In this document: one piece after another, positions 5,687-6,052 of the stretch | Position numbering within the stretch: position 1 is the first letter of the stretch | How the letters are laid out: every line of letters begins with the position of its first letter | Translations under genes and position numbers: made by a program | From: Nitrospira sp. | GTDB taxonomy: Bacteria > Nitrospirota > Thermodesulfovibrionia > UBA6902 | Reading direction: 5' to 3' | Length of the DNA: 64,000 nt | Assembly: GCA_016784355.1 (NCBI GenBank) | Contig: JADHUV010000009.1 | Coordinates: 8,746-72,745 of the forward strand | The notes under the pieces: generated by a model | Database searches by the model: none | What the model saw: only the letters and a program-made list of their open reading frames with translations | What the model was told of the DNA's origin: nothing

Positions 5687-6052
5687 AGTAGTATGATGAT
5701 GAGATGGTAATTTTTTATAGTGATTATGGTATTATACACAAGTGTCCCCGAGTATTTCTTATTCAGGTGTGTATGCGATAATTGATATTTCAGTCACCTC
5801 TATCCCTTTTGTCCATGATCGCATCTTTTATCAACGCAGTTTCCTGCAATTAAAGTTGTCAGGGAATGTGCCGTATATATAGCATAGAAATGAAGCTTTA
5901 GTTAGAAGTATTCGGTTGGGGGGCCTTATCCCTTTTATTTTAGTATAAATTTTTTATATAATAAGGATTACTTGTTTTAAATTTCGAGAATCAGTATATA
6001 TCTGATTGTTAAATATATAAAAGAACGAAAAATAATTTCGATAGAGGTATAG

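Follow-up and report, generated by a model that had tools for sequence, protein, structure and literature searches.

The contig JADHUV010000009.1 of a Nitrospira sp. (GTDB lineage Bacteria; Nitrospirota; Thermodesulfovibrionia; UBA6902; assembly GCA_016784355.1) contains a gene for a fusion protein of 796 amino acids (aa). Its domains are a recognition element (RRE) of the type known from the maturation of peptides that are synthesized ribosomally and then modified post-translationally (RiPPs), a radical S-adenosylmethionine (rSAM) core with a SPASM domain, and a methyltransferase domain of the ArsM type. Downstream lies a gene for a B12-binding radical SAM protein (B12-rSAM), and the terminator that had been described behind it was found as a hairpin and a T-run, which are the end of the two-gene operon. 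A preliminary description of this DNA had pointed out that a precursor peptide gene, normally present directly beside RRE-bearing SPASM maturases, is missing here, and had named three alternatives: a substrate encoded elsewhere, possibly a cysteine-rich protein of 112 aa, an RRE that has been repurposed, or a substrate that is not a peptide. The missing precursor and the probable substrate of the fusion are the subject of this text. The stretch that was analyzed, called the window, comprises 64,000 nt (positions 8,746 to 72,745 of the forward strand of the contig); its relevant features are compiled in Table 1, and homologous loci in other genomes are denoted by an L and a number.

Table 1. 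Features around the fusion gene (positions are those of the window; bit scores are given together with the curated cut-offs where available)
Feature	Position	Strand	Basis or remark
NifA-like GAF/sigma-54 activator	4151-5686	-	TIGR01817 574 bits, cut-off 529
Divergent intergenic region	5687-6052 (366 bp)	.	GC 0.34, no precursor gene
Gene for 796-aa fusion protein	6053-8443	+	Pfam, NCBIfam, homologues, AlphaFold2 (AF2), Foldseek
PqqD-like RRE domain, aa 54-110	6212-6382	+	PF05402 46 bits (cut-off 23.4), E = 6.6e-12
Radical SAM core and SPASM	6491-7375	+	Pfam; invariant cysteines
Cys-rich linker VGCYHCSCVL...C552	7646-7708	+	C537, C539, C552 invariant in 65 homologues
ArsM-type SAM methyltransferase domain	7775-8380	+	NF008823, PDB ArsM alignments, Foldseek
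Gap between fusion and B12-rSAM gene	8444-8507 (64 bp)	.	contains AAGAGG ribosome-binding site of B12-rSAM gene
B12-binding radical SAM gene, 494 aa	8508-9992	+	PF02310 91.5 bits, PF04055 77.1 bits
GC hairpin and T-run	~10016-10048	.	read from sequence, after B12-rSAM gene
Cys-rich 112-aa protein, 12 Cys	13112-13450	+	no Pfam or NCBIfam match

The intergenic region upstream of the fusion gene is, as described before, divergent and AT-rich; its GC content of 34% compares to about 44%, with values of 0.41-0.51 in the flanking genes. It had been stated to contain only frames of 3-19 codons without ribosome-binding sites (RBSs). The size range has to be corrected, because an ATG frame of 25 codons (5704-5781) and a GTG frame of 46 codons (5742-5882) are present, while the second half of the statement holds: neither of the two is preceded by a Shine-Dalgarno sequence comparable to the AGAGG and AAGAGG of the two real genes. 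In addition, neither frame recurs in any of the homologous loci compared. A search against Rfam with a permissive E-value yielded nothing meaningful for positions 5600-6150, and the putative 5' untranslated region (UTR) of the fusion gene folds no better than shuffled sequence (z = 0.27); a riboswitch or leader RNA was rejected on these grounds. A sigma-70-like promoter (TTGTCA-N18-TAGCAT) is located at 5856-5885. The region most likely consists of promoter and 5' UTR only. With 64 bp and not 65 bp, the stretch that separates the two rSAM genes is too short to hold a precursor gene, in agreement with the earlier view that it is empty. Beyond the hairpin a Mur-ligase-like gene is oriented convergently to the operon.

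More than 120 full-length homologues of the fusion were found, which share 63-80% identity and stem nearly all from metagenome-assembled genomes (MAGs) of Nitrospirota/Thermodesulfovibrionia, and 57 homologous Thermodesulfovibrionia loci were taken from species-representative genomes. Open reading frames (ORFs) of at least 10 aa in the gaps upstream of the fusion gene, between the two genes, and downstream of them were clustered for 51 Thermodesulfovibrionia loci using blastp and blastp-short, and no conserved small ORF was detected. The clusters obtained were shadows of the ends of coding regions or near-identical DNA within one subclade. A subclade-specific frame of 38 codons was rejected, because it begins upstream of the -10 box and the frame is lost in L006. 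Likewise, 65 loci of the wider family contain no conserved small ORF of at least 18 aa within 900 nt, and the sole cluster found there is a shadow on the strand opposite to the coding sequence of the C-terminal domain of ArsM. A MAFFT comparison of 38 upstream regions of 90-1000 bp gave no alignment except for the RBS and short sigma-70-like promoter motifs. Neither a leader protease nor an exporter is encoded near the fusion across about 120 loci. The absence of a precursor gene is thus confirmed for the window and for about 120 related loci, and the conserved small ORF that would have argued for a precursor after all turned up neither in the 51 nor in the 65 loci. As the absence extends over about 120 loci, having no precursor encoded in cis is a trait of the whole family and not of this genome alone.

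A constant companion of the fusion gene does exist, namely the B12-rSAM gene. It is adjacent and co-directional in all 47 of the 47 loci that have at least 1 kb of downstream sequence, and it is separated from the fusion gene by 10-246 bp, usually 27-48 bp, or overlaps with it by up to 29 bp. It is the only constant neighbor of the Thermodesulfovibrionia fusions, while all other neighbors vary between loci. The B12-rSAM gene is an obligate operon partner of the fusion gene, and the module of both genes is self-contained. A promoter of the type TTGACA-N17-(TG)TAAAT lies very close to a conserved RBS region with the sequence TTAACGGAG in many homologous loci, among them L004, L009, L011, L013, L019, L024, L029, and L044, and this proximity argues for a short leader and transcription of the sigma-70 type.

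A gene for the NifA-like activator is the divergent neighbor of the fusion gene in 19 of 43 loci. Control of the fusion gene by this neighbor via sigma-54 was rejected, because no acceptable GG-N10-GC site is present here or in the 38 homologous upstream regions. The activator is a facultative neighbor and, since no sigma-54 promoter precedes the fusion gene, probably not the regulator of the rSAM operon. A sigma-54-like -24/-12 element, GGGCATGTAAGTTGCA, was found at 13014-13029 on the plus strand, about 83 nt upstream of the gene for the 112-aa protein, for which a promoter of this kind had been predicted. With a site there and none before the fusion gene, the activator may instead serve the 112-aa gene and the neighboring desulfoferrodoxin-like (dfx-like) gene.

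The 112-aa protein had been put forward as the possible substrate. It is rich in cysteines, it is encoded in the same 8-kb neighborhood as the fusion here and in two of the 57 other loci (L003 and L048), and the sigma-54-like site of its gene lies near the gene of the NifA-like activator. However, its family is small, with 24 clusters at an identity level of 90% compared to more than 120 for the fusion; wherever a source is named for them, it belongs to Nitrospirota. The protein is not common near the fusion either, and it is missing from 55 of the 57 fusion neighborhoods. On the long contigs L066 and L068, which encode homologues of the 112-aa protein, no fusion is present within 10 kb. In the loci that have both, the 112-aa gene keeps company with the dfx-like gene and the activator rather than with the fusion. 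The co-occurrence that had been suggested as a check is therefore confined to two other loci, a role as dedicated substrate was rejected on distribution and synteny, and we regard it as extremely improbable that this protein is the substrate of the fusion.

A few observations concern the vicinity of the 112-aa gene. The neighbors of the fusion in the window include, apart from the genes already mentioned, a gene for an HPP membrane protein (Pfam, NCBIfam; the Mur-ligase-like and the dfx-like gene were recognized in the same way). The desulfoferrodoxin-domain protein of 158 aa (12262-12738, minus strand) starts with a twin-arginine-like leader, MERRTFLKGIATTAALL..., which suggests from the sequence that it is an exported superoxide-reductase-like protein; a desulfoferrodoxin gene also accompanies the 112-aa gene in L003. 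An ORF of 802 aa (13567-15975, minus strand) has weak multihaem-cytochrome-like matches, tetratricopeptide repeats, and a sub-threshold MamA-like match.

The N-terminal two thirds of the fusion resemble maturases of RiPPs. Pfam domains were assigned to aa 54-110 (PqqD), 147-302 (Radical_SAM), 376-441 (SPASM), and 615-758 (Methyltransf_31). In the AF2 model of the whole protein, which has a mean predicted local distance difference test (pLDDT) value of 74.7, the folded RRE unit spans about aa 37-114 and forms a winged-helix-like arrangement of a beta-sheet and helices with pLDDT values of 85-96. The rSAM motif is C151-x3-C155-x2-C158, that is CX3CX2C, and a complete SPASM motif of seven cysteines follows (C384-x9-C394; C437-x2-C440-x5-C446-x3-C450; C474); both are invariant in the homologue alignments. 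RiPP maturases with RRE and rSAM/SPASM domains are the best matches for aa 40-490 in fold and sequence, and Foldseek matched the N-terminal part to SkfB, CteB, and SuiB. All NCBIfam models stay below their cut-offs for the rSAM core, in the fusion as well as in its wider-family relatives. The HCxC motif of the linker is a family signature and is kept even in relatives without a C-terminal fusion. The N-terminus carries a pair of cysteines, C5-C6 (6065-6070), which is invariant in all 65 aligned homologues. In L084 and L086 the ORF of the fusion is split; a recoding as selenocysteine was considered and discarded, since frameshifts or ambiguous bases are the cause. In the same two loci several SPASM cysteines are replaced (for example YPSASF in place of YPCAS) and the HCxC motif reads HSNCVL, and these fusions may represent a variant with degenerate auxiliary clusters.

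The C-terminal third, in contrast to RiPP maturases, is a methyltransferase of the ArsM type. It has a class I SAM motif (VDLGAGGGID, which conforms to DLGxGxG) and scores 115 bits against Methyltransf_31. Residues 587-789 align with the ArsM proteins of Chlamydomonas and Cyanidioschyzon (PDB 5evj and 4fr0; E = 1e-32 and 9e-30), and the motifs YGCG, SNCV, and C-L-x-GA with the As(III)-binding cysteines are preserved in the alignment to chains of the 5evj and 4fr0 type. Foldseek also retrieved ArsM structures, including 4fs8 and 4fr0, with 35-37% identity and a root mean square deviation of 3.0 A. The cysteines of the domain are C581 (YYCPTGY), C604 (YGCGNP), C696 (SNCV), and C746 (NACLSGA), and, together with the C5-C6 pair and with C537, C539, and C552 of the linker, they are invariant in the 65 homologues. 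The As(III)-binding cysteines of CmArsM, C72, C174, and C224 together with an N-terminal cysteine, provide the frame of reference, and C581 would be the equivalent of the latter. The model for arsenosugar ArsM (NF038099) yields 141 bits for the fusion, with a cut-off of 400. Most close homologues carry a short tail with the motif CxCxxCG; the fusion of the window ends with KPKK and has no such tail.

A wider family came to light when aa 1-560 served as the HMMER query against representatives of clusters at the 50% identity level. All Thermodesulfovibrionia fusions are one single representative at this level, and the fusion is the Thermodesulfovibrionia branch of a large uncharacterized family for which no curated model exists. 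Full-length relatives with 34-47% identity, for which Deltaproteobacteria, Dehalococcoidia, and Elusimicrobiota MAGs are the named sources, have the PqqD-like domain, the rSAM/SPASM core, and the HCxC motif in common, and they are publicly named "methyltransferase domain-containing protein" or "PqqD family peptide modification chaperone". The post-SPASM motif FxVGxFHCxCVL is conserved in distant relatives, and a loop of the RRE (IDPxxPNW) is nearly invariant even at 35% identity. This near invariance would fit a conserved ligand or an interdomain contact, and not the binding of diverse leader peptides. The C-termini of the relatives are mostly ArsM-like, otherwise Methyltransf_11, TusA, or nothing; an ArsM domain is fused in 38 of the 65 wider-family loci, and these members keep the ArsM C-terminal domain and have CC-rich tails such as CGPGCC. 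In the literature, no fusion of rSAM/SPASM and ArsM was found described.

The genomic contexts of the relatives were taken from individual look-ups and from 59 metagenome loci, which were scored by a tblastn label census. Among 43 loci with a flank of at least 2.5 kb and without an adjacent B12-rSAM gene, i.e., of the non-Thermodesulfovibrionia type, 20 contain a DUF2064 gene and/or a glycosyltransferase family 2 (GT2) gene within 3.5 kb, mostly directly adjacent and on the same strand. Eleven of these DUF2064/GT2 neighbors were scored, and six exceed curated cut-offs. All six genes of the TIGR04282/TIGR04283 type that were scored pass the NCBI cut-offs (TIGR04283: 253, 253, and 204 compared to 182; TIGR04282: 200, 156, and 150 compared to 134); NCBI names both families arsenosugar-biosynthesis glycosyltransferases. 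Further recurrent neighbors are thioredoxin, a DsbH-like thioredoxin protein, pyridine-nucleotide disulfide oxidoreductase, DedA/VTT and GT-C-like membrane proteins, and ArsR-family regulators. An ArsP permease and a pair of TusA and DsrE were each found once. In some members TusA is fused in place of ArsM (L073, 7307-10070; L074, 8001-10166), and in L073 separate TusA and DsrE genes are located ahead of the fusion. This hints that some members act on persulfide sulfur, or on selenium, and not on arsenic.

How do these results bear on the nature of the substrate? One explanation is that the fusion is a genuine peptide maturase with a precursor gene that lies far away in the genome. In this case the RRE would bind the leader in trans, and the methyltransferase domain and B12-rSAM would tailor the peptide. 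Remote precursors are known in a few RiPP systems, the PqqD-like RRE is intact, the nearest characterized homologues are RiPP maturases, and B12-rSAM has sub-threshold similarity to models of RiPP C-methyltransferases (ApyD, 161 bits; TIGR03975, 94 bits). However, the lack of conserved small ORFs, proteases, and exporters in about 120 loci argues against such a system, and so does the apparently vertical inheritance of the family, which is highly conserved within Thermodesulfovibrionia, unlike the sporadic occurrence of RiPP clusters. Furthermore, it is not evident what part the cysteines for As(III) binding would play in the methylation of a peptide, and the relatives are found among transferase, thiol-redox, and ars-type genes. 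Taken together, a remote precursor appears rather unlikely. A combined version, in which a functional RRE is coupled to arsenic chemistry on the thiol of a peptide or protein, so that a C-As or S-As linkage would be made on a ribosomal peptide encoded in trans, has in our view a very small probability. If it were true, the product would be either a ribosomal natural product that contains arsenic, the first of its kind, or a peptide cofactor for the handling of arsenic.

A second explanation is that the module matures a cofactor or a protein of full length, in the manner of the anaerobic sulfatase-maturating enzyme (anSME) acting on sulfatases, the glutamine C-methyltransferase QCMT acting on methyl-coenzyme M reductase (MCR), or NirJ and AhbD acting on tetrapyrroles; the RRE-like domain would then dock the client. 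The rSAM core has sub-threshold similarity to NirJ2, AhbD, and anSME. The best NCBIfam matches of B12-rSAM are the models for BchE, HpnJ, and P-methyltransferases, of which BchE scores highest (204 bits, cut-off 481), and the MCR glutamine C-methyltransferase model yields 120 bits. The conservation of the family is housekeeping-like, and five loci have the module beside cobA/hemD-hemC-hemA genes. However, all these matches are far below the curated cut-offs, and the linkage to haem genes in five of 51 loci is too rare to be persuasive. In addition, this explanation leaves unexplained the cysteine set of ArsM and the occurrence of the relatives beside TIGR04282/TIGR04283, ArsR, and ArsP genes. 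We consider a protein or cofactor maturase to be distinctly unlikely. As to the tetrapyrrole genes themselves, the identities of which were judged by eye from the sequence, a cobA/hemD-like gene lies divergently upstream of the module in L027, L030, L031, and L032, whereas in L016 it follows downstream in the same orientation, and hemA- and hemC-like genes are present in L033 and L039.

The reading that we favor is that the module belongs to a small-molecule metalloid pathway that would work like ArsS/ArsM and is not a RiPP cluster, and we give it about an even chance. The substrate would most likely be a trivalent metalloid coordinated by thiols, either As(III) itself or a methylated form of it, and not a ribosomal peptide, and the family most likely builds methylated arsenic compounds. 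A metalloid substrate is suggested by the full conservation of the ArsM cysteine set together with the extra invariant cysteine motifs that flank the rSAM core, by the C-terminal fusion to ArsM or to the sulfur carrier TusA, and by the occurrence of distant relatives beside TIGR04283/TIGR04282 transferases and thiol-redox, ArsR, and ArsP genes. On this reading a precursor gene is missing because the enzyme is not a classical RiPP system. Among the three alternatives of the preliminary description, the 112-aa protein encoded elsewhere thus drops out, and a repurposed RRE or a non-peptide substrate is favored, because small ORFs, proteases, and exporters are lacking, the ArsM cysteines are kept, and distant relatives occur in operons together with TIGR04282/TIGR04283 transferases, ArsR, and ArsP.

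The following sequence of steps can be envisaged for the metalloid pathway. The ArsM domain would bind As(III) via C604, C696, and C746, together with C581, and methylate it with SAM. The N-terminal CC pair and the HCxC motif with C552 of the linker might pass the arsenical on to the active site of the rSAM/SPASM part, where a SAM-derived radical would form or remodel a C-As bond, by analogy with the action of ArsS on trivalent dimethylated arsenic, DMAs(III). The B12-rSAM partner could contribute a further methyl group at a carbon or at the metalloid, and the RRE-like domain would have been retained for a ligand other than a leader, or for an interdomain contact. The absence of the transferases in Thermodesulfovibrionia and the obligate presence of B12-rSAM suggest that the product of this branch is different, and probably more methylated. 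Judged from its sequence, the weak likeness of B12-rSAM to P-methyltransferases would be compatible with the transfer of a methyl group to a pnictogen centre or to a position beside it, which is speculation.

Several findings weigh against a metalloid pathway. The closest characterized relatives of the rSAM core, by sequence as well as by fold, are the peptide maturases StsB, SkfB, CteB, SuiB, and MftC, and the RRE has an intact fold, the prediction of which is of high confidence. No homology of the rSAM core to ArsS was detected at any level; an ArsS model is not among the best 25 of 113 NCBIfam matches of the fusion nor among the best 25 of its unfused relatives, and SPASM families lead in both cases. 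The best NCBIfam match of the C-terminal third, arsenite methyltransferase NF008823, reaches 240.4 bits and thus stays slightly below the cut-off of 263. The ArsM C-terminal domain is absent, and the sequence stops with ...KGIKPKK right after the methyltransferase fold. With respect to the neighborhoods, the label "arsenosugar" of TIGR04282 and TIGR04283 is presumably an annotation that was itself inferred from gene context. Some of the transferases found beside the relatives are of other types: the DUF2064 genes of L070, L093, and L107 score 92, 52, and 64 compared to 134, and L070 and L073 have AglJ-like GT2 genes, with 42 and 50 bits compared to the 182 of TIGR04283. Moreover, the Thermodesulfovibrionia loci are nearly devoid of transferases (DUF2064 in one and GT2 in three of 57 loci, and none in the window), and the tblastn census found neither ArsR nor ArsP in them, so that it is the fused domain and the distant relatives that provide the link to arsenic.

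The fusion family is best described as an organoarsenical-type system of rSAM plus ArsM that is built on a RiPP-type scaffold and that is uncharacterized and widespread. If the metalloid pathway is real, the combination of an RRE with rSAM/SPASM, which genome miners regard as a hallmark of RiPPs, has been recruited to the small-molecule chemistry of metalloids, and hundreds of such genes are liable to be mislabeled as orphan RiPP maturases. Radical SAM chemistry would then have a second way of making C-As bonds, without homology to ArsS, the biochemistry of arsenic would gain a step catalyzed by a B12-rSAM, and organoarsenical synthesis would be placed in Thermodesulfovibrionia. These anaerobes reduce sulfate and can be dominant in aquifers affected by arsenic (10.1101/2024.10.03.616553). 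The fusion may be among the genes that are counted as "arsM" in surveys of such aquifers.

The module was also compared with characterized systems. What the fusion shares with SkfB, CteB, SuiB, AlbA, and StsB is a PqqD-like RRE at the N-terminus, a CX3CX2C motif, and the full SPASM motif. Its family differs from these RiPP maturases in that about 120 loci are devoid of precursor genes, proteases, and exporters, and in that its members have a C-terminal fusion to ArsM, TusA, or another methyltransferase, the HCxC motif, and the near-invariant RRE loop. The partner resembles the B12 radical SAM methyltransferases (PhpK/Sden_1168, BchE/HpnJ-like) in having B12-binding and rSAM domains. The sub-threshold similarity to the P-methyltransferases PhpK and Sden_1168 adds enzymes that methylate a pnictogen centre to this comparison; however, the partner stays below every curated cut-off.

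The arsenic systems are similar in architecture and differ in the families involved. ArsS is an rSAM enzyme that is encoded beside arsM and adenosylates the DMAs(III) produced by ArsM (PMC13598754). This reaction is a precedent for the chemistry proposed here. In the fusion an rSAM enzyme is likewise coupled to an ArsM-type methyltransferase, in this case within one polypeptide, the As-binding cysteines are kept, and relatives adjoin the TIGR04283/TIGR04282 transferase families. However, the rSAM scaffold is a SPASM protein with a PqqD-like RRE and not a member of the ArsS family, and the Thermodesulfovibrionia branch has B12-rSAM instead of transferases. The ArsL/ArsM pair of arsinothricin biosynthesis is also a two-gene unit of an rSAM enzyme with a B12-binding-type domain and an ArsM-type methyltransferase. 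In contrast to ArsL, B12-rSAM has no RCCLKC motif in its sequence and reaches 74 bits with NF040542, the model for ArsL (cut-off 450); the ArsM domain of the fusion scores 202 bits against the arsinothricin ArsM model NF040538 (cut-off 500), and the fusion system has an additional RRE-rSAM/SPASM module. The analogy therefore concerns the mode of action: the fusion would work like ArsS/ArsM or ArsL/ArsM, while it belongs to neither of the two rSAM families.

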